Positions 20,343 through 45,992 of a stretch of 64,000 nt of DNA are shown here, in pieces. Within the stretch, counting starts at the first letter, position 1, and each line of letters starts with the position of its first letter. A program made the translations under genes and the position numbers. Under the pieces are notes generated by a model that was not told the DNA's origin, made no database searches, and saw only the letters and a list, made by a program, of their open reading frames with translations. Source of the DNA: an uncultured Chitinophagaceae bacterium (lineage in GTDB: Bacteria > Bacteroidota > Ignavibacteria > Kapaibacteriales > UBA961); assembly GCA_964527785.1 (NCBI GenBank), contig CAZGNO010000004.1, positions 14,364 to 78,363 on the forward strand, written 5' to 3'.

Positions 20343-21020
20343 ATGCCCACACTTATTCTTTCCGGTTCAACCGGAAACCTTGGTTCGGTTGTTACTCAGT
20401 TATTTCTTGATAAAGGATGGAATGTTCATGCAGCGTGCATCAGTTCCACAGAAGCATCTCGGCTTCCTGACCATCCCAAATGCAGTCACAGCATCGGTAA
20501 TCTTTCCGATGAAAATGACGTTGAAAAATTATTTCAAGATGCGGGAGGAGTAAATGCCGTTGTTCATTTGGTGGGCGGCATCAAAGCCGATGAACCGCTT
20601 GCCACAACTACTGTAGATACATTCGACGGCATGATAACGCTCAATACACGAACTACATTTCTTGTACTACGTCAGGCAATGCGCGCACTACAGGCAAGCG
20701 GCGGCGCAATTGTAACCATCGGCGCAAAAGCCGCTCTCCATCCCGAAACCAATAAATCCGCTTATGCTGCAGCCAAAGCTGCCGCTATTAATCTAACTCT
20801 TACTGCTGCGGAGGAAGGCAAACCATACGGAATACGGGCTAATTGCATTGTACCGGGCATCATACTCACTGCTGCAAATCTTGAATGGGCTACAGGTGGT
20901 GAGGAAAAGAACTGGACTCCACCCCTCGATATCGCCGATGCAATTTTTTCACTCTGTTCTGATTCGGGAAAAGGTATCAGCGGTGCAGTACTACCAATGT
21001 ATGGAAAAATACCGTCATAA
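20343..21020 (+). CDS. SDR-family oxidoreductase (atypical or short)
   Basis: The Rossmann motif reads LILSGSTGNLGS (TGxxGxxG-like), the active-site region is YAAAKAA and the length is 225 aa. Confidence 0.7.
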   Translation: MPTLILSGSTGNLGSVVTQLFLDKGWNVHAACISSTEASRLPDHPKCSHSIGNLSDENDVEKLFQDAGGVNAVVHLVGGIKADEPLATTTVDTFDGMITLNTRTTFLVLRQAMRALQASGGAIVTIGAKAALHPETNKSAYAAAKAAAINLTLTAAEEGKPYGIRANCIVPGIILTAANLEWATGGEEKNWTPPLDIADAIFSLCSDSGKGISGAVLPMYGKIPS

Positions 21021-21026
21021 ATCCCT

Positions 21027-22244
21027 ATGAAATTTTTTTTTGATTTTGAAGCATCTGTTCCGGCTCTGCGGCGTGATATTGAAATTATTGTGTTCACAGG
21101 GAAAGAAGGTGACAATCAGCTTTATATGAATTGTCCACATGGATATGCCGATGCACTCACTTTGCCTGCAACGTTTTCGCCCCTCCTCGAATTAATTAAC
21201 GGCTCTAACAGCATTTTTTCAATTACGGCACAATTGAGTCAAACAACTACTCTTCGCGTTCAACCCGCCGATTTGTCTGTTTTTCTGAGAGACTTGGACG
21301 AGCTTGGCTTTCTTCAAACCTCAACATTCTATAGACGCAAGGAGGAAATCCAAAGATTCCGCGCTTCGCAGATTCGTCCTGCTATTTGTGCAGGAGGTGC
21401 ATACCCAAGCACTGTTCGTGAACTTACGGAGTATTTAGATGAAATTATGCGCACATCACCTGTACGCGAAAATCCAGCACGCGGGATAATTGCTCCTCAT
21501 ATTGACCTTCGAGTGGGCGGTACGGCATATTCTCCTGCATATAATGCTATCAGTCAAAGCGAAGCGGATTTATTTGTAATCTTTGCAACGTCACATTATG
21601 CTAATTACGATTTATTTATTCCAACATTCAAGGACTTTGAAACGCCGCTCGGAATTGTGGAGACTGACCGCGAACTTCTAGAAGCAATCAGAGGATCGTT
21701 TCCTTTTGATTTAACAACAAATGATATTGCCCATAAACCCGAACATTCGATTGAATTGGAATTGATTTTTCTACAGCATTGTTTCTCACGCAGAAATTTC
21801 ACAATTCTACCTATCCTTGTAACGTCTTTCCATTCATTTATACAACAAGGAATTTTACCGGAACAGCATCCTCCTGTCAAGGAATTTGCAGCGGCAGTTC
21901 GCACTGTAGTAGAGCAATCGGGCAGAAATGCCATCTATATTTCGAGCGGTGATTTGGCACATATCGGACGGAAATTTGGTGATACTTTTGATGCAGAGCC
22001 AATCCTCCCTGCTTTACATACAGAAGATAATTCTTTACTTCGTTCCTTGGAACTGTGCGACCACAACGGGTTCTTTACTCATGTGGCAAAAACAAACGAC
22101 AAGTGGAAAATTTGCGGACTCTCGCCAAATTATATGATGCTGGAAACCATGCGCCCTGAACGTGGAGAAATTCTCTATTACGAGCAATGGAATGAGCGGG
22201 AGCAAAAATCGGCAGTTAGTTATGCTTCGCTTGCTTTTTATTAA
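21027..22244 (+). CDS. MEMO1-family (AmmeMemoRadiSam system protein B-like) protein with an approximately 115-aa N-terminal extension of unknown function
   Basis: ..AGGAYP....L..........GIIAPHIDLRVGG..YS.AY and SGDLAHIG resemble the MEMO1 His/Asp-rich site. The first ~115 residues have no recognisable family. The start lies 6 bp after the SDR stop codon. Confidence 0.55.
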   Translation: MKFFFDFEASVPALRRDIEIIVFTGKEGDNQLYMNCPHGYADALTLPATFSPLLELINGSNSIFSITAQLSQTTTLRVQPADLSVFLRDLDELGFLQTSTFYRRKEEIQRFRASQIRPAICAGGAYPSTVRELTEYLDEIMRTSPVRENPARGIIAPHIDLRVGGTAYSPAYNAISQSEADLFVIFATSHYANYDLFIPTFKDFETPLGIVETDRELLEAIRGSFPFDLTTNDIAHKPEHSIELELIFLQHCFSRRNFTILPILVTSFHSFIQQGILPEQHPPVKEFAAAVRTVVEQSGRNAIYISSGDLAHIGRKFGDTFDAEPILPALHTEDNSLLRSLELCDHNGFFTHVAKTNDKWKICGLSPNYMMLETMRPERGEILYYEQWNEREQKSAVSYASLAFY

Positions 22245-22323
22245 ATTTGCATTATAAAATCGCTTTAACGCTTCGTTCATTACTGAAGAAGCTGCACTTT
22301 TATTCAATTTTAGGAGTATTTCA

Positions 22324-22764
22324 ATGAAAAATTTGCGCATGATCCCGATGATATTCGGATGTATGATTTTATGTTTTACCGTTCTAGGCATGAGCGTAGC
22401 AAAGGGTCAGGACAAAGCTGCTCTTATGAAACGCGGCGGTGAAGTTTATAAAGCATATTGCCAAACTTGCCATCAACCTACCGGATTGGGATTACCAAAT
22501 GTGTATCCGCCACTTGCGGGCTCGGATTATATCAAAAAAAGTCCCAAAGCTACAATTATTGACAATGTTGCAAATGGTCTCAAAGGACCGATTACAGTTA
22601 ATGGTAAGAAGTTCAATAATGTAATGGTACCGCTTCCTGCTAATTATACCAATGATGACGCAGCAGCTGCAGTTACGTATATACTGAACAGTTGGGGAAA
22701 TAACGGCGGATTGGTAACTGCTGCCGAGGTGAAGAAAGCCCGTAAGCTTGCTGCTAAGAAATAA
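22324..22764 (+). CDS. Class I monohaem cytochrome c
   Basis: Signal peptide, single CQTCH haem-binding motif and a distal Met-containing region (NVMVPLP), 146 aa. Confidence 0.8.
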   Translation: MKNLRMIPMIFGCMILCFTVLGMSVAKGQDKAALMKRGGEVYKAYCQTCHQPTGLGLPNVYPPLAGSDYIKKSPKATIIDNVANGLKGPITVNGKKFNNVMVPLPANYTNDDAAAAVTYILNSWGNNGGLVTAAEVKKARKLAAKK

Positions 22765-22788
22765 TAAGCGATTTATAGTATAGACATA

Positions 22789-22823
22789 CCCCGCTCCATA
22801 TAATAATGGAGCGGGGTTTTTTG
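22789..22823 (+). terminator. Rho-independent terminator
   Basis: ccccgctccat-ataataat-ggagcgggg followed by ttttttg. Confidence 0.8.
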
Positions 22824-23172
22824 TGATGTTTATTACAAAACAGTAAATAAAAAGATTGTAATTTGTCAATTAGCTATGAAGAATACTTGTAGCCGTAATA
22901 ATTATGAAAGAGTAATTGACCTCACAAAACAATACATTCCAATTCAAGTACAATTATTTCCTCCTACAGTCATTTTTATGTAATTTGCATACTCTTATGC
23001 TGCAATGCCGATACTCTTTCGAAATAATGATCTATGACTTGCCTCATAGTTTCTAAGTACTGTATTTATTCAGATACTGTTAAGAACTGGTGGGGTTTTA
23101 ATTTTTGTGTAAATTTTTTGTGCATTACTTGTCGTACTCACGGTACAAATACTGAAACCTGAAAGTGAAAAC

Positions 23173-24549
23173 ATGATTCGATATTTGATCCTCTTGTTGT
23201 ACATTACTCTAAATTCTTCATTTGCATTTTCGCAAGAAACAAGTGATTCAACTACTTTACAAGGTGCATTGAAACAAGGGACGATTTCAGGACATATTCG
23301 CAATGTCACAATGGCTACCGATAATGCAGCCGGGCTGACTGATTCGTATGCCAACGGTTTGGGATTGGGGATTGGGTATGAATCCGCACCGTTTCATAAT
23401 TTCCAAGTCGGAATCAGCGGTTTTTTTATGTATAATTTATTTTCGTCGGATCTTGGTGTAATAGATTCAATGACAGGTGCGCCAAACCGATACGAAATTG
23501 CGTTATTTGATGTTCAAGATGCTCATAATACTCAGTTAAACCGCCTACAAAACCTTTACCTCAAATATTCTCTCGATAATTTTTCTATCAAGATTGGAAA
23601 ACAGTTGATACGAACCCCGTTTATTAATCAACAAGACGGACGGTTAGCCCCGACAATGGTGGAGGGAGCATTGTTTGAATGGAAAAACAGCAGTTCAAAA
23701 GTGGAAGGCGGGTGGATTAATAAAATTTCTCCGCGAGGTACATTACGGTGGTTTCCCGTCGCTTCTTCCATTGGAATTTACCCGCGTGGTTTTACTACAA
23801 ACGGTAGTCGGTCGGGATATGTAGGTAATCTTACAAGTGCAGGCATTTTTTATGCGGGACTAACTCACAGTATCACCCCTCAGAATACTCTCCAAGCATG
23901 GGATTTTTATGTAGAGAATATCTATAATTCATTACTGCTTCAATTTAACAGCGAAAAAACATCCGGTGCAAACGGAGCAAAAATCCTGATGGGTTTGCAA
24001 TTAATTATGCAAACCGCAATTAATTACGGAGGGAATCCCGAACCACAAAAGGCATATCTTCCCCAAGGGGGTGCTGCCTATTCTCTCGGCGCACAGTTTG
24101 GGTATGTATTTCCAAGTTCAACGTGGAAATTCATGGTGAATTACAACCATATTACCAATGACGGACGATATTTGATGCCGCGTGAATGGGGACGTGATCC
24201 ATTTTTTACATTTATTCCCCGCGAAAAGAACGACGGTTTTGGTGGAGTTGATGCTATCAATGCAGTAATTAGCCATGATTTTGGGAGTGGTTTTACTTCT
24301 GAAATTATGTACGGACATTATTATTTACCTGATGTTAAAAACGTTCTGCTCAATAAGTACGGTCTTCCTTCCTATAATCACTGTAATATAAACACAAAGT
24401 ACAACTTTTCGGGACATCTAAAAGGTCTGGATATGCAATTTCTTTTTGTGTATAAAGGGTTGCTGGGTAATTCGTATGGTGATGCCACTTACATATATAA
24501 TAAAGTGACAATGGCGCACTATGAACTTATAGCAAACTATAACTTTTAA
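23173..24549 (+). CDS. Putative outer-membrane beta-barrel (porin-like) protein
   Basis: Signal peptide, alternating amphipathic beta-strand pattern rich in G, Y and N, and a C-terminal ..NYNF. Confidence 0.5.
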   Translation: MIRYLILLLYITLNSSFAFSQETSDSTTLQGALKQGTISGHIRNVTMATDNAAGLTDSYANGLGLGIGYESAPFHNFQVGISGFFMYNLFSSDLGVIDSMTGAPNRYEIALFDVQDAHNTQLNRLQNLYLKYSLDNFSIKIGKQLIRTPFINQQDGRLAPTMVEGALFEWKNSSSKVEGGWINKISPRGTLRWFPVASSIGIYPRGFTTNGSRSGYVGNLTSAGIFYAGLTHSITPQNTLQAWDFYVENIYNSLLLQFNSEKTSGANGAKILMGLQLIMQTAINYGGNPEPQKAYLPQGGAAYSLGAQFGYVFPSSTWKFMVNYNHITNDGRYLMPREWGRDPFFTFIPREKNDGFGGVDAINAVISHDFGSGFTSEIMYGHYYLPDVKNVLLNKYGLPSYNHCNINTKYNFSGHLKGLDMQFLFVYKGLLGNSYGDATYIYNKVTMAHYELIANYNF

Positions 24550-24558
24550 TTGGTACTA

Positions 24559-25506
24559 ATGAATAAACAGCCACTCAAAACCGAATTTTTCAAGAAAATC
24601 ATTTACATTGCTGCTGCCATAAGTTGTTTTACTCCGTATATCTCCCCCCCAATCGCACTACTGATGGGTGTACTCCTTTCTCAAATTCTCATTAATCCCT
24701 TTCGTAAATACACCTCTAAAACAACAAAGATATTACTACAATCCTCTGTTGTCGGATTAGGTTTCGGAATGAATATTTTCGAGGCGGCAAAAGCGGGACA
24801 GGATGCAATTATGTTTACAATTGCAACTATCGGTCTCACCATTCTGCTAGGTATTATCGCCGGAAAGTGGCTTGCCGTAAATAGGAAAGCTGCAATGCTT
24901 ATATCGGTCGGCACTGCAATATGCGGCGGAAGTGCAATTGCGGCTGTTTCACCAATTATCGAGGCAAATGAGAATGAAATATCAGTTTCGCTCGGTATTG
25001 TTTTTCTGCTGAATACACTCGCTCTGTTTATTTTCCCTCTTATCGGTCATGTAATTAATATTAGTCAGGCGCAATTTGGTTGGTGGGCTGCTATTGCCAT
25101 CCATGATACAAGCTCTGTTGTAGGAGCAGCACATTCCTATGGTGAGGCAGCACTGCAGATTGCAACAACTATAAAGCTGGAGAGAGCATTATGGATTATT
25201 CCGGTTTCACTTGTTACAGCGTTTATGTTCAAGACTTCAAGCCGTAAAATTGCCATCCCCTATTTTATCTTCCTTTTTATTGCTGCAATGGCGGCTAATA
25301 CTTTTATACCCCAGATTCAACCCTTTGGTGAAATCATTGTGTTTCTTTCTAAGAAGGGTTTGACACTTACCCTGTTTCTCATTGGAACAGGAATAACCAG
25401 ATCAGCAATAAAAGCTGTAGGACTACGACCTTTTTTATTAGGGATACTTCTTTGGACGGCGATTTCAATAAGCTCACTCCTCGTCATCCTTCAAACAATA
25501 CCGTAA
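24559..25506 (+). CDS. YeiH/UPF0324-family membrane protein (annotated as putative sulfate exporter)
   Basis: About 10 transmembrane segments and family-typical segments (ISPPIALLMGVLLSQ.., ..SVGTAICGGSAIAAVSP..AIAIHDTSSVVGAA). The likely start is ATG 24559, directly after the OMP stop codon. Confidence 0.7.
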   Translation: MNKQPLKTEFFKKIIYIAAAISCFTPYISPPIALLMGVLLSQILINPFRKYTSKTTKILLQSSVVGLGFGMNIFEAAKAGQDAIMFTIATIGLTILLGIIAGKWLAVNRKAAMLISVGTAICGGSAIAAVSPIIEANENEISVSLGIVFLLNTLALFIFPLIGHVINISQAQFGWWAAIAIHDTSSVVGAAHSYGEAALQIATTIKLERALWIIPVSLVTAFMFKTSSRKIAIPYFIFLFIAAMAANTFIPQIQPFGEIIVFLSKKGLTLTLFLIGTGITRSAIKAVGLRPFLLGILLWTAISISSLLVILQTIP

Positions 25507-25603
25507 GGTAAGCGGCTGATTACAAGTCTTTCCAATGTAATTTTCAGTAACAACACCTATTCACCCAGTAGTGAAAAGTTACTTTACAAAGGGAAGTCAC
25601 ATT

Positions 25604-26596
25604 ATGAAGCAAATTTCGGTATTCTGTTTATATCTCTGTATTGTGTGCATTTTTACTATTGGATGCACCCAAACCGACAGAAAAGAATTGTCTCACTACA
25701 CCATACACAGCCCTTCTGATTCATCACAAAAAATTTCTTATGACACTGCATCTATCCCGCCGGGACCTGAACGTGAATTTATTATTTACGGACGGGAATT
25801 ATTTATTAATACACATCTTTACCTCGGTCCAAAAGGGACAGTTAAGCAAATTACCGGCAATGAAATGGACTGCAAGAACTGCCACATGGAAAACGGCACA
25901 AAGCCATTCGGACAGCCGCTTATTACTGTATCGGGACGGTATCCTCAATACAGAGCGAGGGAAGCAACAATTCTTACTATTCAAGACCGTGTGAATAATT
26001 GCCTCGAACGCCCGCTACTCGGTAAGCATCTTGAATTCGACAGTAAGGAAATGAAAGCGTTCGTAATGTATCTCAAATGGATTTGGGATAAGAACAATAA
26101 TGTTATCAAAGCAACAGGTGACCTGCCAAATACAATACCATGGCTAGATAGGAAAGCTGACTGGAACAAAGGGAAGGTTGATTATGAGCAATTTTGCGCA
26201 CGATGTCACGGAATTGACGGGCAAGGTATTAAAGCACCGGGAGGATATGGCTACACCTATCCACCCGTTTGGGGAAAATACTCATATGCAATTGGTTCAA
26301 GTATGCATAGAGTTGGGAAATTAGCTGCTTTTATTCGTAATAATATGCCGTTTGATATGGATACCACCCATATACGTGTTACCAATGAACAGGCATACGA
26401 TATTGCTGCATATATAAATAACGAGACTGTTAACCCACGCCCCAATTTCAATGAGGGGGAGATGCTGTACCCTCATATTGAAGATAAATCCACCGATTAC
26501 CCTATCGGTCCGTATACAGACACATTCTCTCAAGACCAACACAAATATGGTCCGTTCAAACCAATAGAAGCATATTGGAAAGAGCGTAAAAAATAG
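25604..26596 (+). CDS. Dihaem c-type cytochrome lipoprotein, TsdA-like (thiosulfate dehydrogenase family), paralog 1
   Basis: Lipobox FTIGC|TQ. Two CxxCH motifs (CKNCH and CARCH) are spaced about 110 residues apart, as in TsdA. A Cys follows about 39 residues after the first haem His (NNC), where TsdA has its Cys haem ligand. The protein is 75-80% identical to the next gene. Confidence 0.55.
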   Translation: MKQISVFCLYLCIVCIFTIGCTQTDRKELSHYTIHSPSDSSQKISYDTASIPPGPEREFIIYGRELFINTHLYLGPKGTVKQITGNEMDCKNCHMENGTKPFGQPLITVSGRYPQYRAREATILTIQDRVNNCLERPLLGKHLEFDSKEMKAFVMYLKWIWDKNNNVIKATGDLPNTIPWLDRKADWNKGKVDYEQFCARCHGIDGQGIKAPGGYGYTYPPVWGKYSYAIGSSMHRVGKLAAFIRNNMPFDMDTTHIRVTNEQAYDIAAYINNETVNPRPNFNEGEMLYPHIEDKSTDYPIGPYTDTFSQDQHKYGPFKPIEAYWKERKK

Positions 26597-26705
26597 TTTT
26601 AATGATTTGTGAACTATAAGGATGCAGAATATTCACTTGTATCCTTACAGTCATATCTTGATTTCTCAAACTAAAAAGGAGTCCATAATGAGAAAGGAGT
26701 ACATA

Positions 26706-27710
26706 ATGAAAAAAGCCATTTCGCTTATTACTGTATCTATCGGGATTTTATCCATCGGTTTTGTTTGTTTGAGTATTACCGGATGCAACAGAAACGATTC
26801 CGGTGAAACACAATCAATCCCCCAAAATGCAACTGATTCAATATCGGTAGTTTATGATACAGCTTCAATTCCGCAGGGACCTGAACGAGAGTTTATACTT
26901 TTGGGGCGAGAACTGTTTATGAATACACATACTCTGATAGGTCCCAAAGGAACAATTGCACAAATTACCGGCAATGAAATGGATTGCCAGAATTGTCATT
27001 TTGAAGGTGGGACACGACCGTTTGGACAACCACTTGTTACAGTATCGGGTCGGTATCCTCAATACAGAGGAAGAGAAGGTACAATCCTTACAGTGGAAGA
27101 CAGGATAAATAATTGTTTGGATAGACCGCTTCTCGGCAAACATTTACCGTTCGACAGCAGAGAGATGCACGCTTTTACAATGTATTTCAAATGGATTTGG
27201 GATATGAACAAGAATGTATTGAAGGTAAATGGTGATCTTCCCAATACATTACCATGGCTCAACAGAAAAGCCGATTGGAAACAGGGTAAGATTGACTATG
27301 ATCAATACTGCGCTCGCTGTCATGGAATAGATGGCGAAGGAATTAAAACTCCAAGCGGCTATGGATATACTTATCCTCCGGTGTGGGGTTCACATTCCTA
27401 TGCTATCGGCTCAAGTATGCACCGTGTAGGAAAATTAGCTGCCTTTATCCGTAATAATATGCCCAATGATATGAACATCACCCATATTCGTGTAACTAAT
27501 GAACAGGCGTATGATATCGCTGCATATATCAATAACGAAACAGTAAATTCCCGACCTGATTTTCACGAAGAAGGTGTGCTCTTTCCTCGAACCGCAGATA
27601 AACCCGTTGATTACCCCTTTCCACCGTATGCGGATACATTCTCACAAGACCAGCATAAATTCGGTCCGTTCAAACCAATTGAGGATTATTGGAAGAATCG
27701 CAAGAAATAA
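26706..27710 (+). CDS. Dihaem c-type cytochrome lipoprotein, TsdA-like, paralog 2
   Basis: Lipobox SITGC|NR. The CQNCH and CARCH motifs and the long conserved blocks (GRYPQYR, YPPVWG, HRVGKLAAFIRNNMP) are shared with paralog 1. Confidence 0.55.
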   Translation: MKKAISLITVSIGILSIGFVCLSITGCNRNDSGETQSIPQNATDSISVVYDTASIPQGPEREFILLGRELFMNTHTLIGPKGTIAQITGNEMDCQNCHFEGGTRPFGQPLVTVSGRYPQYRGREGTILTVEDRINNCLDRPLLGKHLPFDSREMHAFTMYFKWIWDMNKNVLKVNGDLPNTLPWLNRKADWKQGKIDYDQYCARCHGIDGEGIKTPSGYGYTYPPVWGSHSYAIGSSMHRVGKLAAFIRNNMPNDMNITHIRVTNEQAYDIAAYINNETVNSRPDFHEEGVLFPRTADKPVDYPFPPYADTFSQDQHKFGPFKPIEDYWKNRKK

Positions 27711-27938
27711 TACACTTATTGCCAAATTTTCAGGAGATATACCATAGAACGATAGATACATTTGGAAATACTTACAATTTAGAATTGCTCTGTGATAAAA
27801 TATTAATTAGAGAAAAATGACTTTCGAAGGGAAATAACCTTTAGTACTCTTCGTCAAGTCAGACACAATATTGCATTCACTGCAAATAATGGTGATTAAC
27901 CGCCGTAGCTTTTGTCAGTAATTTTGCCCTCAAAATTC

Positions 27939-30900
27939 ATGAGTATTTCTTCCTTAAGTATTGATCGTCCTGTTCTCACCATTGTTTCATCAATTGTTAT
28001 CGTACTTTTTGGAGCAATTGGCTATACATATCTTGGAATCCGTGAATTTCCTGCTGTTGACCCTCCGGTTATCACGGTGAGCATGAACTATGTGGGTGCG
28101 AACGCCGATGTTATCGAATCAAAGATTACCGAACCGCTCGAAGAATCGCTCAATGGAATAGCCGGTGTACGATCCCTCACATCAATCAGTAAAGATGGTA
28201 CAAGTACAATTACTGTTGAATTTGAACTTGGAATCGAACTTGAAACCGCAGCAAATGATGTACGCGACAGGGTTTCTCGTACCCTTCGATTGCTCCCGCC
28301 TGATGCCGACCCGCCGGTAGTTACCAAAGCTGATGCCAATTCAGATGCAATCCTAGTGGTTACCGTCCAAAGTAAAACGCGTGATTTGCTCGAAGTGTGC
28401 GACATTGCAACCAATGTTATCAAAGAACGCTTGCAAACTATCCCCGGTGTGAGTGAAATCAGAATTTGGGGGGAGAAAAAATACGCAATGCGGCTTTGGC
28501 TTGACCCTATGAAACTCGCCGCGTATCGGCTTACTGCGTTAGATGTAAAAGCTGCCCTCGACCGTGAGAATGTGGAGCTTCCATCAGGAAGTGTGGAAGG
28601 CACGAATACAGAACTAACGGTACGGACAATGGGACGACTTGTAACTACTGACGATTTTAACAATCTCATTATCAAACAAGATGGGAATAATACCGTTAGG
28701 TATGAGGATATAGGCCGTGCAGAAATCAGCGCAGAAAATATGAAAACCATCCTTAAAACCAATGGCGTACCCATGTTTGGCGTAGCAATTACTCCACAGC
28801 CGGGTGCAAATCATATTGCTATCGCCAAAGATTTTTACAAGAGGGTAGAAGAAATCAGAACAGACCTCCCACCCGATATACAGCTCGGAATTTTACTTGA
28901 TACCACCAAAAGCATTAAAGATTCGATTGTTGAAGTAGTAGAGACAATGATTATTGCTTTTTTACTTGTTGTGTTAATTATATTTATTTTTCTCAGAAAT
29001 TGGAGAACAACGCTGATTCCGGTTGTGGCTATCCCTATTTCACTTATAGGTGCGTTCTTTGTTATGTACTCGATGGATTTTTCTATCAATGTACTCACAC
29101 TTTTAGGTATTGTGCTTGCAACAGGGCTTGTGGTGGATGATGCTATTGTTGTATTAGAAAATATTTATACCAAAGTAGAGGACGGCATGGATCCTCTCGA
29201 AGCATCACACAGTGGTTCGAAGGAGATTGTATTTGCGATTTTATCTACTACCATTACCCTTGCTGCTGTATTCCTACCAATTGTATTCCTGCAAGGACTA
29301 ACAGGAAGATTATTTAGGGAATTTGGGGTGGTGGTGGCAAGCTCGGTGTTAATCTCAGCTTTCGTTTCGCTGACTCTGACTCCGATGATGAGTTCGCGGC
29401 TAATCAAAGGGCATTCTACCCATGGGAAACTCTATGAATGGTCAGAACGTCTGCTTCGCCGATTGGTTGACGGTTACACGTCATCTCTTAACAGTTTCAT
29501 GTACCGCAGATGGCTTGCTTTTGTTATAATGGCTATTTCGTTTGCAACAATTTTTGGATTCGGTGGCACACTCGGAACAGAACTTGCACCTATTCAAGAT
29601 AAAAGCCGTATGCGAATTACAGCCACCGGACCAGAAGGTGCATCGTTCGAGTTTATGGATAATTATATTGTCAAGCTCAATAATCTTATGAATGACTCGG
29701 TTCCCGAACAGCGTTCCTCGCTCACGGTTACTTCACCGGGTTTTAGCGGTTCAAGTTCGGTTAATCAAGGTTTTATGCGTCTCATGCTTACTGAACCGAA
29801 TGAACGCAGCCGCTCACAGCAAGAGGTTGCCGAACAAGTTACCAGACTTCTCAAGCAAATCCCGGATGCAAAAGGAATAGTAATACAAGAGCAAACAATT
29901 GGTTCAGGTGGAGGCGGTGGTGGTCTCCCCGTTCAATTTGTATTACAAACTTCTACTCTCGATAAGCTAAAGGCAGTTTTACCGCGATTTTTAGAGGAAG
30001 CGTCAAAAAACCCTGCATTTAGTGTGGTTGATGTCAATCTGAAATTCACCAAACCGGAATTGCTACTGGAAATAGACCGTGAAAAAGCACATACCCTTAA
30101 TATTTCCGTTTTGGATATAGCCCAAACGCTCCAAGCGGCTTTTAGCGGTCAGCGGTTCGGATATGTAATTTTGGACGGGAAACAGTATCAGGTAATCGGG
30201 CAGGCAGAGCGTACAGGGCGTAACGACCCGCTTGATTTACGTTCGTTGTATGTTCGTAATTCAGCCGGATTATTGATACAACTTGATAATGTTGTCCGGC
30301 TCACAGAAAAAAGTACTCCTCCACAATTATTCCACTACAACCGCTCCGTGTCAGCAACTATTTCTGCCGGACTTGCCAAAGGAAAAACAATAGGAGACGG
30401 AATAGAGGCAATGAAGGATATTTCCACACGAGTTCTGGACGAATCGTTCAGCACAGCCCTTACCGGTCCATCGAAGGATTTTGCCGAGAGCTCATCCAGC
30501 TTGCTCTTTGCGTTTGTGCTGGCACTTGTACTGATCTATTTGGTTCTGGCAGCGCAGTTTGAAAGTTTTATTGACCCGTTTATTATTCTCCTTACTGTTC
30601 CGCTCGCTCTTGCCGGAGCGATACTTTCGCTTTGGTATTTCGGGCAAACCCTTAATATATTTAGTGAGATAGGAATTATTATGCTTATCGGGCTAGTGAC
30701 TAAAAATGCAATTTTGATTGTTGAATTTGCCAATCAACGCAAAGAACAAGGATTATCTGTTCTCGAAGCCGTAAAAGATGCAGCAGTTTCACGTTTCCGT
30801 CCTATTCTGATGACGACACTTGCTACAGTACTCGGTGCACTGCCGATTGCACTTGCTTTAGGAGCTGGCTCAAAAAGCCGTATTTCGATGGGTATATCAG

Positions 30901-31055
30901 TGATTGGCGGGTTGCTTCTCTCGCTTGTGCTTACTCTGTATGCGATTCCTGCTCTCTATAGCTATTTCTCTAAAGAGAAGGGGCGCAAAAGTAATTTAGA
31001 AAACAATGAATTATCATTTACAAGTACGGAAAAACCATTGGAACAAACGATATGA
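27939..31055 (+). CDS. RND-family efflux transporter permease (AcrB/HAE-type)
   Basis: About 1040 aa with 12 transmembrane segments, two large periplasmic loops and the motif VDDAIVVLENI. The likely start is ATG 27939. Confidence 0.9.
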   Translation: MSISSLSIDRPVLTIVSSIVIVLFGAIGYTYLGIREFPAVDPPVITVSMNYVGANADVIESKITEPLEESLNGIAGVRSLTSISKDGTSTITVEFELGIELETAANDVRDRVSRTLRLLPPDADPPVVTKADANSDAILVVTVQSKTRDLLEVCDIATNVIKERLQTIPGVSEIRIWGEKKYAMRLWLDPMKLAAYRLTALDVKAALDRENVELPSGSVEGTNTELTVRTMGRLVTTDDFNNLIIKQDGNNTVRYEDIGRAEISAENMKTILKTNGVPMFGVAITPQPGANHIAIAKDFYKRVEEIRTDLPPDIQLGILLDTTKSIKDSIVEVVETMIIAFLLVVLIIFIFLRNWRTTLIPVVAIPISLIGAFFVMYSMDFSINVLTLLGIVLATGLVVDDAIVVLENIYTKVEDGMDPLEASHSGSKEIVFAILSTTITLAAVFLPIVFLQGLTGRLFREFGVVVASSVLISAFVSLTLTPMMSSRLIKGHSTHGKLYEWSERLLRRLVDGYTSSLNSFMYRRWLAFVIMAISFATIFGFGGTLGTELAPIQDKSRMRITATGPEGASFEFMDNYIVKLNNLMNDSVPEQRSSLTVTSPGFSGSSSVNQGFMRLMLTEPNERSRSQQEVAEQVTRLLKQIPDAKGIVIQEQTIGSGGGGGGLPVQFVLQTSTLDKLKAVLPRFLEEASKNPAFSVVDVNLKFTKPELLLEIDREKAHTLNISVLDIAQTLQAAFSGQRFGYVILDGKQYQVIGQAERTGRNDPLDLRSLYVRNSAGLLIQLDNVVRLTEKSTPPQLFHYNRSVSATISAGLAKGKTIGDGIEAMKDISTRVLDESFSTALTGPSKDFAESSSSLLFAFVLALVLIYLVLAAQFESFIDPFIILLTVPLALAGAILSLWYFGQTLNIFSEIGIIMLIGLVTKNAILIVEFANQRKEQGLSVLEAVKDAAVSRFRPILMTTLATVLGALPIALALGAGSKSRISMGISVIGGLLLSLVLTLYAIPALYSYFSKEKGRKSNLENNELSFTSTEKPLEQTI

Positions 31056-32368
31056 CGCTACGGGAAATGATGATGTCGGTTATAATACTTGCTTTTATTG
31101 CGGGTCCTTTCGCATATGCACAGGAATCTCTCTCGCTCAATGAAGCGATTCGTATCGGCTTGGAAAACAACTACTCCATTCGCATATCCAAAAACGATAC
31201 GAAAATAGCCGAAAACAATGTGAGCATCGGTAACGCCGGAATGCTCCCCCGTCTTGATGCAACAGCAGCTACAGGTAGAACAGTTGCTAATGTAGATCAA
31301 GAACTTGCAAGCGGACAAACCAACAAAAGAACGGGTGCAACCTCAGCTACATTGAATGCAGGGATAGCACTCACATGGACACTCTTCGACGGCTTCAAGA
31401 TGTTCACCTCGTATGACAGACTTACGGAGATTCAGCGCATCGGTGAAATAGCTTTCAGAAGAACAATCGAGACAACTTTATCGCAGATTATTGCACAATA
31501 TTATGATGTAATAGCTCAGCGCAGCACACTTGATGCACTTCGAGAAAGCGTGAATGTTTCTCAAAAACGATTGGATGTTTCAAAAAACAGAACAGAACTC
31601 GGTGCGGATTCCAAACAAAAACTCCTTCAAGCCACCATTGATTTTAATGAAGACAGAGCAGCTTTCCTGCGGCAGAAAATTACATTAGAACAAAGCAAGA
31701 TTGCACTTAATCAATTGCTGGCAAGGAAAGTAAGTACGGAGTTTGAGCCATCGGATTCGATTGCACTCAAACCAACGTTTGTTCTTGATGATCTTTATCA
31801 AAAATCGTTTGCAAACAATACATTGCTCCTCATTGCAATGGCAAATAAGTCACTGGCTGAATTTGATCTCAAGCTCTTAGATTCAGAATGGTATCCGTCC
31901 CTTACATTTACATCGGGTTTGAATTATTCAAAAATAAACTCTCAATTCGGTGCTGTGAGTTCGTCTACATCATTAGGTGTTAATTACGGACTCAGTGCCT
32001 CGATAAATTTATTTGAGGGCGGAAATCTACGAAGAGAGTCCGAAAATGCACGGTTGCTTATACTTTCTAATGAAGAAAATATTGCCCTTGTGAAACAACA
32101 AGTCGAATCTGATGTATCCCGTGCATACCGCCACTATGCTGCAACAATTAACCTATTGCAGTTTGAAACCGAAAACGTAGCTCTAACAAAGCAAAATGTG
32201 GAAATATCCTTGCAACGATATACACTCGGAAACATAACCGAATTTGAATTCCGACAAGCCCAGAAGTCCATGACAGATGCCGAAAACCGTACAATTAAAT
32301 CGCTCTATGATGCTAAAATCGCTGAAACGGAATTATTGAGGTTGAGTGGTGGATTGGTGAACCCGTAG
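31052..32368 (+). CDS. TolC-family outer-membrane efflux protein
   Basis: A signal peptide and two coiled-coil/beta-barrel repeats are typical of outer-membrane factors (OMF family). The start overlaps the RND stop codon (ATGA). Confidence 0.85.
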   Translation: MTLREMMMSVIILAFIAGPFAYAQESLSLNEAIRIGLENNYSIRISKNDTKIAENNVSIGNAGMLPRLDATAATGRTVANVDQELASGQTNKRTGATSATLNAGIALTWTLFDGFKMFTSYDRLTEIQRIGEIAFRRTIETTLSQIIAQYYDVIAQRSTLDALRESVNVSQKRLDVSKNRTELGADSKQKLLQATIDFNEDRAAFLRQKITLEQSKIALNQLLARKVSTEFEPSDSIALKPTFVLDDLYQKSFANNTLLLIAMANKSLAEFDLKLLDSEWYPSLTFTSGLNYSKINSQFGAVSSSTSLGVNYGLSASINLFEGGNLRRESENARLLILSNEENIALVKQQVESDVSRAYRHYAATINLLQFETENVALTKQNVEISLQRYTLGNITEFEFRQAQKSMTDAENRTIKSLYDAKIAETELLRLSGGLVNP

Positions 32369-34045: not shown

Positions 34046-36871
34046 TTATTGATGGATGTGTTTGTTATTCAACGCTTTTTCCAAGGCAAACAGCAACGAG
34101 CGATAGTGCTGCCCTGTTACTGAACTCATTCCCATTTCACAGGTTATATTGCTCGAATAATAACCGTCAAACTGTGTTTGCTTCACTTCCGCAGCTTCTT
34201 TTTGAGTGGCAGATGCAGTTAGTTCGGGATAGAGCAATCCCTTATCCCCGGCAAATCCGCAGCAGTTCAGATCATCGGGAATTGTAACGGTAGCAGCACA
34301 TCTTCGGGCGATTGCTTCCATCTTTTCAGCAAGTCCCATCTTGATTAACGAGCAATTCGGGTGTAATACAATTGATTCATTGCTTTGCGTAATCGAAAGT
34401 TTTTCCAGCAGAATATCATGTATAAATTCAATGCTGTCCATGATTTTTATTTGTTTCCACCGTTCAAGTGTTTGAGCAGTAAGTCCTGTAGGTTGGGTCC
34501 TGAGAAAAAGGGTACATGAACTTGCATCAATAACTACCGGCAGTTTCCCATGCTCTGACCATTTCCAAAAATTATCAATTAACTGCTCCCACATTGCAAT
34601 CCCGCTTTCAGCAAAACCCTTCGACGCAAAGGCAAGTCCACAACATCCATTACTTTCGTTCGGGATATAGACGCGTACATTTGCTGCTTCCGCAATTTTC
34701 ACAAGAGTCATTGGAAGATTATCTGATTCTGACTGCCCGAAGAGCCGTGTTGTACAAGCAGGAAAATACACTGCTGCCGCATCATTGGGCGAAGTATGCG
34801 GAAGTTTTGGCGGTTGACCTAAAAACGGTTCCCACGAAATTTTTTGTTGGACAATCGAACTGATAATTTGAGAAATACGCTTCGTACTGCGATTGCCCAG
34901 GATTTTTTGACTAAGCCGGGCAGATCGTAACCCAATTTGTGCAAGTCTAAGCACCAGTGGGAAGTGATTCACAAATCGCTTGGCAGTTCGCTTCTCCGAT
35001 TGCGAAATCATTTTATGTTTGGTAAACTTAACGAGATCACCGGTATTAATCCCAACCGGACAGACGGTTGCGCACATACCGTCTGCGGCACATGTTTCTA
35101 TCCCGGAATAGAGAAAATCTTCTTGTAATTCTTTAAGTGCAATTGGATGATGTTCTGTCGGCAGCCGTATCATTTCTCGCCATAGAATTATACGTTGGCG
35201 CGGTGTGAGCGTAAGATTTTTACTTGGACACTTCGATTCACAGAAACCGCACTCAATACATTTATCCACTAGGGGATGGACAATTGGTAGCGACTTGAGG
35301 TGGTTTGTGTGATTATTTGCATTTGAACTGATAATTACATCAGGATTCAGAATTGCATCCTTATCAACCAGAGTTTTGAGTTGCTTCATTATCGAGTATG
35401 CGGTTTCGCCCCATTCTTGCTCGACAAAAGGGGTAATATGCCGACCAGTGCCGTGCTCCGCTTTCAAAGAGCCGTTGTATTTTCCAATGACAAGGGCAGC
35501 CAAATCCTCAATGAACGAACCGAAATGATGTTTATCGGCAGGTGTATCGAACGAATGGGCAGCTACAAAATGAAGATTCCCGTCCTTTGCATGACCAAAA
35601 ACAAAAGAATCGTTGAAACCATGCTCCTTAAAAAGGATATGAAGGTCTTCAACCGCATCTGCAAGCCGTTCAATCGGGAAGGCAACATCTTCGTTCAGCA
35701 AGGCAGTTCCGGCGGCTCGCATTGCACCGGCTGTAGGAAACATTCCTTTACGAATATTCCACATAGCGGCTTGTTCTTTGGGATTTTCGGTAAATTCTGG
35801 TTCAAAAAGCAATTCTATTTTTTTAATTGCACTAAAGGCACTTTCCATTTTCTCTGCCAATTCTTCTTGAGTAGTTGCCTGAAACTCCGCCAAAAGCGCA
35901 GCAGTACCATCAGGCAGCGTTCTGAGAATTGCAGGGCTTATCGGAAGATGTTCTACTGAGCGCAAGGCGGGTCTGTCCATCAATTCCAGTGCTTCTGCTC
36001 CGGCATCCCGCAACGGCACAATAGCTCTACAAGCTGCATGAACGCTTTGAAAATAGAGCATTGCTGTAGATTTGTACGGATTATCGGGTATGGTTCGGAA
36101 TATTGCTTCTGCGATAAAGCCAAGAGTCCCCTCGCTCCCAATCATCAACCGTCCTAGAATATCAGCGGGCTTTTCTTCATCTAAAAATGCGTTTATTGAG
36201 TAGCCGACCGTGTTCTTAATTTTATATTTCGAGCGGATTTTTGCGGTAAGTTCCGGGTCATCAAGAATAAATTGCCGCAGGGCTATTATCCCGTCGTAAA
36301 TTTCGGGACAGTGCTTCTCTAATTCTTCGTTTGCATTTGGCTCTGCGGTATTAACGAGTGTACCGTTTGGCAGGACATAGGTGATTGATTCGATGGTATG
36401 GTAGGAATTATTTGCCACTCCGCAACACATCCCACTTGAATTATTGGCAATAATGCCGCCTGTCATACAGGCATTCATACTTGCGGGGTCAGGACCGAGC
36501 TTTGCACCATATTTCCTGAGAACTTGATTTACCTTGCTTCCGATTATCCCCGGCTGTACACGTACCTTCTTACCATCATCCAGAACTTCCACCGCATCCC
36601 AATTCCGGGAAATATCCACGATAATCCCGTTAGTAATCGCCTGACCGGATAAAGAAGTTCCGGCAGCACGGAAGCAGAGCGGAATATTATGTATTGCACT
36701 CCATTTGAATAACGACTGTATTTCCTGCACTGAAACCGGTCGAACGACCGCTTCGGGGATAATACGGTAACAGCTTGCATCGCTTGCGTAGGCGAGACGG
36801 TCTATCCATCGCATCAGGACACGCTCAGGGGCGAGGATTTTTTCTAGGGAGGATTGGATGGGCGACTTCAC
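34046..36871 (-). CDS. FAD-linked oxidase fused to an Fe-S (CCG-domain) oxidoreductase, YdiJ/GlcD-GlcF-like
   Basis: The 941-aa protein has an N-terminal FAD_binding_4 domain (..AAGTSLSGQAI..). The C-terminal part has two Cys clusters (CxxCxxCxxxCP) and CCG-type cysteine repeats. Confidence 0.8.
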   Translation of the reverse strand: MKSPIQSSLEKILAPERVLMRWIDRLAYASDASCYRIIPEAVVRPVSVQEIQSLFKWSAIHNIPLCFRAAGTSLSGQAITNGIIVDISRNWDAVEVLDDGKKVRVQPGIIGSKVNQVLRKYGAKLGPDPASMNACMTGGIIANNSSGMCCGVANNSYHTIESITYVLPNGTLVNTAEPNANEELEKHCPEIYDGIIALRQFILDDPELTAKIRSKYKIKNTVGYSINAFLDEEKPADILGRLMIGSEGTLGFIAEAIFRTIPDNPYKSTAMLYFQSVHAACRAIVPLRDAGAEALELMDRPALRSVEHLPISPAILRTLPDGTAALLAEFQATTQEELAEKMESAFSAIKKIELLFEPEFTENPKEQAAMWNIRKGMFPTAGAMRAAGTALLNEDVAFPIERLADAVEDLHILFKEHGFNDSFVFGHAKDGNLHFVAAHSFDTPADKHHFGSFIEDLAALVIGKYNGSLKAEHGTGRHITPFVEQEWGETAYSIMKQLKTLVDKDAILNPDVIISSNANNHTNHLKSLPIVHPLVDKCIECGFCESKCPSKNLTLTPRQRIILWREMIRLPTEHHPIALKELQEDFLYSGIETCAADGMCATVCPVGINTGDLVKFTKHKMISQSEKRTAKRFVNHFPLVLRLAQIGLRSARLSQKILGNRSTKRISQIISSIVQQKISWEPFLGQPPKLPHTSPNDAAAVYFPACTTRLFGQSESDNLPMTLVKIAEAANVRVYIPNESNGCCGLAFASKGFAESGIAMWEQLIDNFWKWSEHGKLPVVIDASSCTLFLRTQPTGLTAQTLERWKQIKIMDSIEFIHDILLEKLSITQSNESIVLHPNCSLIKMGLAEKMEAIARRCAATVTIPDDLNCCGFAGDKGLLYPELTASATQKEAAEVKQTQFDGYYSSNITCEMGMSSVTGQHYRSLLFALEKALNNKHIHQ

Positions 36872-43402: not shown

Positions 43403-45610
43403 TCAATCACATCCGTGCATAATTGCAACGGTAATTCTGCGGTTCTTTGTTCGGATAGATTCCAAGTCGGCTGCAGGCATTCTCTTGAGTGCCTTGCCTG
43501 TTGGTTCTTTTATGTTTGGTCGGTTAGAAGAATATCCTACCGTACCGGCAATCGCACTTGGATCCACACCTTGTTTAATTAACCATGTACGAACGGCATC
43601 AGCACGATGTTGTGACAGCGGAACATTTATTTTATCTCCGCCTTCTTTCGAAGTATGTCCTTCAATCATCACTTTGAGTTTTTCACATTGCTTTACATAA
43701 GCAAGCAATTTTGCAAGTGCAGGTGCTGTTCCCGGTTCTTTAAAGTTAAATTCGGCAGTTCCCACTATGAATAATATTTCTGGGAAATCTGTTTTTGTAC
43801 CGACTTTAGGAGGTTCAGGGCATCCGTTCTTATTAGGTTCGGCACTGTTTGCTTTGCCGGCTATAAGCGGACAGAAGTCCACATCATCACGAACGCTGTC
43901 GTCGTCAGTATCGGCTTTCAAAGGATTGGTTGGTTCCATACTGACACCGTCTCTCTTGCTTTTACGGTTTACTTCATCTCCATCGGATAATGAATCACCG
44001 TCGGTATCTGCTTTGAGAGCATTAGTTCTATATTTATTCACTTCGTCACCGTCAGTCAAACCGTCTGCATCCGTATCGGGTTTTAGAGCATCGGTTCTAT
44101 ATTTATTCAGCTCTTCACCGTCTTTCAGACCGTCTGCATCCGTATCGGCTTTAAATGGATCTGTTTTATGTTTATTGACCTCATCGCCGTCCTTGAGTTC
44201 GTCTGTATCTGTATCATCCGAAAGTGGATTCGTTTTATATTTATGAACCTCTTCACCATCTTGTAAGATGTCGCCGTCTGTATCTACAATTGCAGGATTG
44301 GTATTGTATTGCTTTACTTCATCACCGTCATTCAAAGCATCGCCATCACTGTCAAGTTTTGTAGGGTTGGTCTTATATTGCTTCACTTCGTCCCCATCGC
44401 GCAAGCCGTCAGTATCTGTATCGGCAATTGCAGGATTGGTATTCGTATCATTAATCTCATTTCCGTCATTCAGTCCGTCGGTGTCGGTATCGGCAAGAGC
44501 CGGATTGGTATTGTATTTCGTGACCTCGTCGCCGTCATTCAAACTGTCTTCGTCGCTGTCTGCTTTGAGAGGATCAGTTTTGTATTTGTTAACTTCATCT
44601 CCGTCAAGAAGAGTATCACGGTCTGTATCCGCCAGCACCGGATTAGTTTTCCGAACGATTTCTTCGCCGTCTTTGAGTCCGTCAGTATCACTGTCGGGAA
44701 GTGTTGGATTTGTATTGTATTTGAATACTTCCTCGTAATCATTTAGATTATCGGCATCAGTATCCGGTTTGAGAGGATTAGAATAATATGTAAATACCTC
44801 TTGACCATCTGTAAGACCGTCGCCATCGGTATCGGGGTTATTCTCATCTGTGCCGATTTCGCGTTCTCTGGAATTAGTTACGCCATCATTATCATAGTCG
44901 GCATTGCCGAATACATAATAGGTAAACCCACCTCCAAACGTCATAAACATATCATTGCCGTCGGATGCCTTACCGTCAATGGTCGGGTCATAACCGTCCA
45001 ACCACGGAGTTCCGGTCATACGGATGGTAGCTCTGCCGTTAAAAACAAAATCATCGGTCAAATACATTTCAAAACCGGCTCCGAACGGGAACATGATTGC
45101 TCTTTTTTCATACGTATTACCATCGTTGAGAGGTAATGCTTTTCCGTCTTCATACGTAGGATTCCAGTCGGTGATTCCTACCCCGCCAAAAATAAACGGT
45201 ACAAACTTTTCACTGGGAATAATATTCCATGAAAGAAATGTTTCATAGGTACTAACCCTAGCGAAACTCTTTTCGTGCGGAGCATCAAATCCATTTTTAC
45301 CGAATCTTCCATAAAATTCGGGGTATTTTTGCTGCATTACATCCGTGTTTTTATACCGCAGTTGCGCCCATCCCATGCTTGCTTGGAGCGATATTTGATT
45401 AATAATATTCCAGCGAGCAAACAAATCTCCGCCAAACCATATTTGGTTGTCCGTAAAAGTTCCCCAATACTTCATACCGCCACCGGTAAAACCAAAACCT
45501 ACACGACCACCTTCGCTTTGAGCGAGAAGCGTATTGTTACCTGCAATCCCCATTGTCATAACTATCATTATTGCAAGTAATCTGTTTCGAAAAGCCATTA
45601 TAGCTTTCAT
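43403..45610 (-). CDS. OmpA-family outer-membrane protein with thrombospondin type 3 (calcium-binding) repeats, paralog A
   Basis: Signal peptide, an N-terminal OmpA-like beta-barrel, about 14 tandem D.D.DG..D..E TSP3 repeats (e.g. DTDGDGLTDGQE) and a C-terminal OmpA peptidoglycan-binding domain (..TVGYSSNRPN..GKALKRM..RITVAIMHGCD). Confidence 0.85.
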   Translation of the reverse strand: MKAIMAFRNRLLAIMIVMTMGIAGNNTLLAQSEGGRVGFGFTGGGMKYWGTFTDNQIWFGGDLFARWNIINQISLQASMGWAQLRYKNTDVMQQKYPEFYGRFGKNGFDAPHEKSFARVSTYETFLSWNIIPSEKFVPFIFGGVGITDWNPTYEDGKALPLNDGNTYEKRAIMFPFGAGFEMYLTDDFVFNGRATIRMTGTPWLDGYDPTIDGKASDGNDMFMTFGGGFTYYVFGNADYDNDGVTNSREREIGTDENNPDTDGDGLTDGQEVFTYYSNPLKPDTDADNLNDYEEVFKYNTNPTLPDSDTDGLKDGEEIVRKTNPVLADTDRDTLLDGDEVNKYKTDPLKADSDEDSLNDGDEVTKYNTNPALADTDTDGLNDGNEINDTNTNPAIADTDTDGLRDGDEVKQYKTNPTKLDSDGDALNDGDEVKQYNTNPAIVDTDGDILQDGEEVHKYKTNPLSDDTDTDELKDGDEVNKHKTDPFKADTDADGLKDGEELNKYRTDALKPDTDADGLTDGDEVNKYRTNALKADTDGDSLSDGDEVNRKSKRDGVSMEPTNPLKADTDDDSVRDDVDFCPLIAGKANSAEPNKNGCPEPPKVGTKTDFPEILFIVGTAEFNFKEPGTAPALAKLLAYVKQCEKLKVMIEGHTSKEGGDKINVPLSQHRADAVRTWLIKQGVDPSAIAGTVGYSSNRPNIKEPTGKALKRMPAADLESIRTKNRRITVAIMHGCD

Positions 45611-45992
45611 AGAGCCTCCAATACTATAATTATACAAAAACTATATCCGTTTTATGTAGAAAAGGATATTTTAATTTTTTTAAGAATTAATGTTTTTTGT
45701 TTGATTTATATGTATTTCTTTGCTTTGCCCGATGCTTTTCTCTTTCTTTGCAGATTGTCGTAGTTTATAGTTCCATTATATTGTTACATATATTATTGAA
45801 AAACGGATTGATGAAGATTACTGGGTATATATTTGAATTTATTATTGAAAAATTTAGTTTGTTTAAAATATAGTACGAATTATTGTCAGGTATGTTTCAA
45901 TTAAAAAGTTCTCTCTAGAATCTTTGTAAAGTCTATGGTAAAATTAATAATTAGAAAGAGCAATAGAAACAAAATAATTGCTCAAAACAAAT

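Follow-up and report, generated by a model that had tools for sequence, protein, structure and literature searches.

The question raised by this locus is which of seven adjacent genes act together on inorganic sulfur compounds, and in what way. The genes lie at positions 22324-32368 of a 64,000-nucleotide stretch of contig CAZGNO010000004.1 (here called the window), which comes from an uncultured Chitinophagaceae bacterium placed by GTDB in the Ignavibacteria. Seven open reading frames (ORFs), all on the + strand and present at the coordinates claimed for them, encode a small cytochrome c, an outer-membrane beta-barrel, a YeiH-family membrane protein, two dihaem cytochromes, an RND permease and a TolC-like channel. 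The original prediction combined all of them into one thiosulfate or tetrathionate module around dihaem cytochromes resembling TsdA, the periplasmic enzyme that interconverts two thiosulfate and tetrathionate plus two electrons. Our analysis points to a smaller unit: a four-gene operon at about 22970-27710, consisting of the porin, YeiH and two lipid-anchored TsdA proteins, probably handles thiosulfate/tetrathionate, and the flanking genes probably belong to separate units. The idea of one coherent module therefore stood for porin, YeiH and the TsdA copies but, on comparative evidence, fell for the cytochrome c and for RND/TolC. The enzymes belong to a known family, whereas the operon architecture, in which an Occ-type porin and YeiH are combined with one to three TsdA paralogues, is new. 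We observed directly to which families the four module proteins belong, that the catalytic residues are conserved, and that the genes are linked and the linkage recurs.

Both dihaem cytochromes belong to the TsdA family of thiosulfate dehydrogenases/tetrathionate reductases; the Pfam, PDB, ligand-residue and fold evidence agree. They pass the cut-off of the SoxA/TsdA domain model PF21342 (TsdA1 40.6 and TsdA2 39.7 bits; cut-off 27), and both also match PF00034. A phmmer search against all PDB sequences returned the TsdA of A. vinosum (E ~1e-33) and the TsdBA fusion of M. purpuratum (1e-29), with the next-best match no better than 4e-3. The AlphaFold (AF2) model of TsdA1 (pLDDT 88.4) strongly matches TsdA/TsdBA structures only: these make up all of its top nine PDB matches, with TMt 0.87-0.88 and a root-mean-square deviation (rmsd) of 2.0-2.3 Å (4wq7: TMt 0.87, rmsd 2.3 Å). 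The expected haem spacing of about 110 residues was found as two CxxCH motifs 108 residues apart in each protein, and the cysteine expected about 40 residues past the first haem histidine lies at 39 residues in both. In TsdA1, haem 1 would be bound by CKNCH (25871-25885) with Cys133 as candidate ligand (26000-26002), and haem 2 by CARCH (26195-26209) with Asn247-Met248; the corresponding features of TsdA2 are CQNCH (26985-26999) with candidate ligand Cys137 (27114-27116), and CARCH (27309-27323) with Asn-Met. TsdA haem ligands of the His53/Cys96/His164/Met209 type have been established experimentally (PMC6879331), and in our alignment these four A. vinosum residues have identical counterparts in both cytochromes, as do Arg82, Arg92 and Arg99. 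Moreover, both CxxCH motifs and the equivalents of Cys96 and Met209 are invariant in all 108 homologues compared. The position of A. vinosum Lys208 is occupied by Asn, within an NNMP motif, in 97 of the 108 and in both window copies.

The other families considered for these cytochromes were rejected. An identity as SoxA is contradicted by a model TM below 0.3 and by scores of 45 and 42 bits for the SoxA equivalog model TIGR04484, far from its cut-off of 110, and no SoxX, SoxY or SoxZ gene was found among the window ORFs scanned. Cytochrome c peroxidase and MauG, a grouping that would have spoken against the original prediction, are absent from the Pfam, NCBIfam and PDB matches of both cytochromes and from the fold search with TsdA1.

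The outer-membrane beta-barrel is an OprD/Occ-type porin by several measures. Its Pfam match is marginal (PF03573, 28.7 bits; cut-off 25), and its AF2 model (pLDDT 83) has 18 strands and finds OccK9, OccK8, OpdK and OccAB as top Foldseek matches (E 1e-25, TMt ~0.8). A profile of the porin family also recovers Occ proteins from the PDB by sequence (VanP, E 1.5e-5). The homologues amount to 2107 database matches, and several Arg and Lys residues are invariant in the family alignment. We propose that the porin is a channel for thiosulfate/tetrathionate. The assignment of its neighbour to the YeiH family was likewise upheld (PF03601, 183 bits against a cut-off of 24.5, E 7e-54); with 102 bits for TIGR00698 (cut-off 232.6), the protein is a PF03601 member outside the score of the curated subfamily. 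Sulfite resistance of Salmonella depends mainly on yeiH (PMC12880088), and in H. denitrificans the gene is strongly thiosulfate-responsive; its product there has been suggested to act like SuyZ and move sulfite out to the periplasm (PMC11582611). The PF03601 family as a whole has been tied to sulfite stress or thiosulfate-induced expression (PMC12880088, PMC11582611, bioRxiv 10.64898/2026.04.22.720190).

The comparison of loci supports porin and YeiH as real partners of TsdA, since genomic neighbourhoods that differ from one another contain the same porin-YeiH-TsdA block. We collected 96 loci (designated by L numbers) by a genome scan, a metagenome scan and exact-protein look-ups, and clustered the flanking ORFs of 87 TsdA loci, namely the first 86 and the window, without supervision. 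Among Ignavibacteria-like genomes the block contains one to three TsdA copies: one in L002 and L087, two in the window and L093, and three in L001 and L094. It was seen in three unrelated neighbourhoods, one of the window type, one common to L087 and L095, and one in L093, of which the latter two contain neither the cytochrome c nor RND/TolC. L087 carries porin-YeiH-TsdA alone, and L093 has porin-YeiH-TsdA-TsdA in its own, different surroundings. The YeiH gene immediately precedes TsdA in the window, L001, L002, L003, L004, L087, L093, L094 and L095, and is separated from it by a small 112-aa ORF in L079. The porin is absent from L003 and L004, the latter having an extra dihaem cytochrome c gene upstream. 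Porin homologues adjoin TsdA in 10 of the 87 TsdA loci, and TsdA lay within two genes of all three distant porin homologues sampled (47-49% identity). A described YeiH-TsdA or porin-TsdA operon was not found in the searchable literature.

The two TsdA copies are less similar than the 75-80% identity first estimated, with 69% by BLASTP and 72% over trimmed columns, and their active-site residues do not differ. Both N-termini carry a lipobox-like Cys (...FTIGC/TQ in TsdA1, ...SITGC/NR in TsdA2), in agreement with the predicted membrane-anchored lipoprotein form. This form had been called unusual; a lipobox-like Cys is found in 45 of the 108 homologues of the clade, and a conserved C-terminal extension of ~45 aa, which A. 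vinosum TsdA does not have, in 98. Lipoprotein form and tail are common in the clade, so neither is special to this locus. The duplication is indeed unusual, multiple tandem copies occurring in 2 of the 87 TsdA loci. The copies form three paralogue clades common to several genomes (neighbour-joining bootstrap 92-99), and the paralogue clade of TsdA2 predates the split from the organism of L001/L094. Because the paralogue clades span genomes, duplication happened long ago and the copies were kept, and recent tandem amplification was rejected as their origin. L095 (3589-8024) carries a second TsdA upstream of the porin in the order TsdA-porin-YeiH-TsdA, not in tandem; therefore, extra TsdA copies arose or moved more than once.

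Related genes also occur in other sulfur contexts. YeeE/YedE-type half-permeases accompany TsdA in 14 of the 87 loci, eight of which also have a homologue of the window porin (30-45% identity). The halves stand directly upstream of TsdA in the loci mapped, which is the place of YeiH in the window, and directly downstream of it in L089 and L090. Subsets of the 14 loci carry genes for persulfide dioxygenase-rhodanese, TauE, DsrE, rhodanese and thioredoxin; in Chitinophagaceae-type loci the porin-TsdA pair is embedded in clusters of TauE, persulfide dioxygenase-rhodanese, rhodanese, DsrE and YeeE/YedE. One protein from a Logan assembly (P0105, 543 aa) has an N-terminal TauE/SafE sulfite-exporter domain (residues 9-245) fused to a C-terminal TsdA, and, if it is not a gene-call artefact, would couple a sulfur-anion permease physically to the enzyme.

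Two further contexts were observed around TsdA homologues. In 32 of the 87 TsdA loci a TsdA-like gene directly follows an arylsulfotransferase gene (PF05935) in SusC/SusD loci, an unexpected place for a thiosulfate enzyme; these loci come from Chitinophaga-like contigs and also carry a GH123 glycosidase (L014, L016, L021, L023, L030-L034, L086 and others). In Flavihumibacter and Chitinophagaceae loci, a SoxB-like metallophosphoesterase gene adjoins porin and TsdA (L088, 10675-12486; L089, 9516-11210). Its product scores 247-264 bits for TIGR04486, below the cut-off of 550, and the arrangement recalls the route reported for Erythrobacter flavus, where TsdA and SoxB lead to zero-valent sulfur (PMC7608252).

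The fine structure of the four genes is consistent with one operon (Table 1). The porin stop codon is 9 nt from the YeiH start, and a terminator scan predicted none in the spacers between YeiH and TsdA1 (97 nt) and between TsdA1 and TsdA2 (109 nt). Longer ORFs begin at 24550 (YeiH), 25571 (TsdA1), 26622 (TsdA2) and 27912 (RND); public gene calls on a 91-kb metagenomic contig identical to the window and conserved starts among relatives favour shorter internal ATGs, which are likely the true starts and are those tabulated. When the upstream regions of five loci were aligned, TCATTTTTATGTAATTTGCA was the sole conserved block, kept also in L093 and L087, whose upstream genes are unrelated. It lies ~180 bp upstream of the porin gene and contains TAATTTG, which resembles the Bacteroidota-type -7 box, and we infer a promoter role. 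The region of AGTCTTTCCAATGTAATTTTCA is a direct repeat of 22968-22989, is partly kept in L094, L093 and L002, and may be an internal promoter. Beyond TsdA2, the 228-nt spacer before the RND gene carries a conserved block of its own, AAGGGTAATAACCTT, which may be an operator, and the ATG start of RND is conserved as well. The leader from the element to the porin start (22990-23172) exceeds that of L002, L093 and L087 by ~150 nt. There was no match to a riboswitch or other known RNA in Rfam at E up to 1 across 22200-28000, and a sigma-70 promoter scan gave as many hits as expected from shuffles and so carries no information for this organism. An inverted repeat of 29 nt (22957-22985 / 27805-27833, 23 of 29 positions complementary) encloses the four-gene cassette and overlaps with the conserved element on either side. 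It was rejected as the mark of a mobile unit, since an equal or better repeat arose in 7 of 30 dinucleotide shuffles, which is within chance.

Table 1. Genes and putative signals of the locus (columns: feature, window position, strand, evidence or remark).
Monohaem c552-like cytochrome c	22324..22764	+	PF00034; neighbour, probably outside the module
Intrinsic terminator closing the SDR-Memo-cytochrome c unit	22788..22817	+	12-pair stem with 8 G-C, then TTTTTTG
Conserved promoter-like element TCATTTTTATGTAATTTGCA	22970..22989	+	Upstream of the porin gene; 20 nt
OprD/Occ-family 18-strand porin, 458 aa	23173..24549	+	PF03573, AF2 model, Foldseek
YeiH-family (PF03601) inner-membrane transporter	24559..25506	+	Pfam; directly upstream of TsdA1
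Weaker second promoter-like copy AGTCTTTCCAATGTAATTTTCA	25525..25546	+	YeiH-TsdA1 spacer; weak evidence
TsdA1, predicted lipoprotein dihaem TsdA, 330 aa	25604..26596	+	Pfam, phmmer, AF2 model, alignment
TsdA2, paralogous predicted lipoprotein TsdA, 334 aa	26706..27710	+	Pfam, BLASTP against TsdA1, alignment
RND permease	27939..31055	+	PF00873; neighbour, probably a separate unit
TolC-like channel	31052..32368	+	PF02321; 4-nt overlap with the RND gene

How the four products might work together can be sketched as follows. Sulfur oxyanions would cross the outer membrane via the porin, presumably adapted to anions, and the inner membrane via YeiH, whose substrate is probably sulfite and/or thiosulfate from cytoplasmic organosulfur or persulfide metabolism. 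Membrane-tethered TsdA would oxidise thiosulfate to tetrathionate at the His/Cys-ligated haem 1, the His/Met-ligated haem 2 would hand the electrons to a soluble cytochrome c of the general type, from which they would reach a terminal oxidase, and tetrathionate would leave through the porin. Under anoxia, the same hardware could run as a tetrathionate reductase, because TsdA is intrinsically reversible and the haem-2 Asn-Met pocket is of the C. jejuni type. Of the two directions we prefer oxidation, with a detoxifying role, since homologues in other Bacteroidota stand in persulfide dioxygenase contexts.

This picture leaves out both ends of the locus, which the original prediction had included by making the small cytochrome c the dedicated electron acceptor and RND/TolC the exporters of the product. 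Such a single ten-kb system would agree with the common strand of all genes and with the order cytochrome c-module-RND-TolC, which the window, L002 and L094 have in common (L001 keeps module and RND, and its contig ends on both sides). The scan also revealed no convincing terminator between TsdA2 and RND. However, the ten kb are not one uninterrupted unit, as a terminator and a spacer of ~350 bp follow the cytochrome c gene, and the module occurs with neither flank in L087, L093 and L095. Moreover, the loci keeping both flanks (L002 and L094) also share housekeeping synteny (GT, FBPase, GWxTD, SDR, Memo); because this wider gene order is conserved too, the conservation of the flanks reflects relatedness, not function. 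The first gene does encode a monohaem class I cytochrome c (146 aa, a single CQTCH, PF00034), whose best PDB matches are cytochrome domains of Cu-nitrite reductases (2e-24) and Thermus c552 (1e-12). It was rejected as a TsdB, the dihaem, c4-like electron acceptor of TsdA, having one haem motif only and matching the TsdB part of 5lo9 with E 1e-3 over 25 residues. Cut off by the terminator, unlike TsdB, and absent from L003 and L004 as well as from L093, L087 and L095, it does not look like a dedicated acceptor, and it may serve TsdA as a general carrier. The RND permease (PF00873, 974 bits) and the TolC-like outer-membrane efflux protein (PF02321) are present downstream as described, but at a distance of 228 bp from TsdA2 to the RND start they do not follow immediately. 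Only the window, L001, L002 and L094 have the pair next to TsdA. A role in product export is opposed by its absence from the module in L093, L087, L095, L003 and L004, by its separate upstream element, and by the RND protein scoring best against multidrug-type permease models. Of a tripartite RND pump, permease and outer-membrane factor were found and the adaptor was not: no periplasmic adaptor (membrane fusion protein, MFP) gene occurs among the ~40 window ORFs scanned, and the gene calls for L091 and L094 contain none, nor does L002. We therefore regard a single ten-kb system as highly improbable; the cytochrome c and RND/TolC are probably separate transcription units and most likely only neighbours of the module.

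A more serious rival reverses the direction of the same parts. In tetrathionate respiration, tetrathionate would enter via the porin and be reduced by the lipoprotein TsdA with electrons passing from the quinol pool through cytochrome c, and thiosulfate would leave via the porin or enter via YeiH. Ignavibacteria include facultative anaerobes, and in Wolinella, membrane association via the lipoprotein TsdC reportedly enhances reductase activity; the window enzyme carries a lipobox itself. TsdA is bidirectional, and that of C. jejuni acts as a tetrathionate reductase. Its haem 2 has the Asn-Met arrangement (PMC6879331) that is also present in both window copies and in 97 of the 108 homologues. 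In other Bacteroidota, by contrast, porin and TsdA are placed with persulfide dioxygenase, rhodaneses and TauE, a setting that is oxidative and detoxifying and yields thiosulfate and sulfite, and neither a quinol dehydrogenase nor a regulator of the kind that typically goes with respiratory reductases was found among the window ORFs scanned. We consider tetrathionate respiration rather unlikely as the main role; the C. jejuni-like haem-2 pocket and the predicted membrane anchor make it a rival to be taken seriously. It is also conceivable that the TsdA fold serves a different substrate, for instance a thiol bound to a protein or carrier, as in SoxA, or sulfite plus a sulfane donor, with the paralogues having diverged. 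The three paralogue clades have been retained since before species splits, the C-terminal extension sets most homologues apart from A. vinosum TsdA, and the TsdA-like genes near arylsulfotransferases and SoxB-like hydrolases hint at a wider chemistry. Against this stand the residues known to matter in TsdA, which are identical in both copies and the whole clade, together with the low SoxA equivalog scores and the lack of SoxYZ- or SoxX-like genes among the ORFs scanned. We hold a different substrate to be quite improbable.

The four-gene operon with thiosulfate/tetrathionate as substrates remains the reading we prefer, and several observations weigh against it. Most TsdA homologues have no adjacent porin or YeiH, and of the 43 loci whose flanks reach 2.5 kb or more in both directions, only 12 have a permease of one of the three types nearby. 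There are many close homologues of YeiH (57-65% identity) that are not accompanied by TsdA, as in L096, and we infer the substrate of YeiH from other organisms and from its operon position. The TauE-TsdA fusion is a single assembled sequence that may be a gene-call artefact. Lacking a convincing terminator behind TsdA2, transcription might read through into the pump genes. Finally, although oxidation is favoured, the sequence alone would be compatible with either direction in vivo.

Elsewhere in the window, the ORFs scanned included no other sulfur genes (SQR, persulfide dioxygenase, rhodanese, regulators) and otherwise looked like housekeeping genes. The cytochrome c gene belongs to a tight same-strand group at 20343-22764, closed by the terminator, with an SDR and a 405-aa Memo-like protein. 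The latter matches AmmeMemoRadiSam system protein B and has a long N-terminal extension; a radical SAM partner was not seen among the ORFs scanned. Shortly after the TolC gene region, the - strand (34046-36871) encodes a 941-aa fusion of FAD-linked oxidase, 4Fe-4S dicluster and CCG domains that resembles glycolate / D-lactate dehydrogenase. Also on the - strand, tandem genes (43403-45637 and 46057-48270) encode two large paralogues of the OmpA family that contain bacterial thrombospondin type 3 repeats.

The TsdA of purple sulfur bacteria and of Campylobacter has been studied in depth. There is little knowledge of how the enzyme obtains its substrates, or of its role in heterotrophic FCB-group bacteria, which are abundant in sludge, soil and sediment. 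YeiH has only recently been linked to sulfite resistance and has no proven substrate. Because a conserved operon ties both to TsdA, the porin and YeiH, so far orphan partners, now come with a testable hypothesis, which in the case of the porin extends to a large uncharacterised clade. The operon suggests that its host bacteria make or consume tetrathionate. Our analysis also corrects an over-extended reading that assigned a drug-type efflux pump to sulfur metabolism. In a bolder version, which we offer as a speculation and consider unlikely, the operon would be a hitherto unrecognised, self-contained envelope system of Ignavibacteria/Bacteroidota for the disposal of cytoplasmic sulfite and thiosulfate, combining export by YeiH, conversion by TsdA and release through a dedicated Occ-type porin. 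If so, turning thiosulfate into tetrathionate would also consume sulfite chemically by sulfitolysis, which would explain sulfite tolerance without a molybdenum sulfite dehydrogenase. The porin would then be the first Occ-type channel specific for inorganic sulfur oxyanions, YeiH would gain a defined physiological partner, and the retained TsdA paralogues would differ in partner or substrate.

Compared with known systems, the window enzymes share with A. vinosum TsdA (4WQ7) and M. purpuratum TsdBA (5LO9) the dihaem plan, and the aligned residues predict that haem 1 has the same His/Cys ligands and that a Met is at hand for haem 2. The arginines of the active site align as well, at ~30% identity and a TM of 0.87. 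They differ in having Asn in place of the ligation-switching Lys208, a lipobox N-terminus where the A. vinosum enzyme has a soluble signal peptide, and the extra C-terminal tail of ~45 aa; furthermore, they have no TsdB partner and are encoded in one to three copies within a porin-YeiH operon. The likeness to the bifunctional tetrathionate reductase of C. jejuni, drawn from described residues only, lies in the Asn-Met pocket and in the equivalents of its ligands Cys138 (haem 1) and Met255 (haem 2). C. jejuni is said to possess a second TsdA paralogue. Membrane association is shared with the TsdA/TsdC system of Wolinella succinogenes, where the anchor is a separate TsdC, whereas the window enzyme would anchor itself. 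Further differences are that both window paralogues keep the candidate Cys ligand and that their host belongs to the FCB group.

Among the putative sulfate-sulfite exporters of the YeiH/SuyZ type (PF03601, TC 2.A.98), the window protein is a clear family member. Enterobacterial YeiH has the LysR regulator YeiE adjacent to it, which is not present at the window locus; here, YeiH is instead operon-linked to TsdA and the porin, an arrangement that we did not find described in the literature searched. With the Occ (OprD) porins of Pseudomonas and Acinetobacter the window porin shares the 18-strand barrel at only 11-16% identity, and it occurs in Ignavibacteria/Bacteroidota together with inorganic sulfur genes, while Occ proteins are linked to amino-acid and carboxylate catabolism. 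The sulfide-detoxification clusters of heterotrophs, with persulfide dioxygenase-rhodanese, TauE and YeeE/YedE, surround homologues of the same porin and TsdA in Chitinophagaceae-type loci. Their cytoplasmic enzymes were not found among the window ORFs scanned; the window holds the envelope part of such a cluster, porin, permease and TsdA, with YeiH in place of YeeE/TauE.

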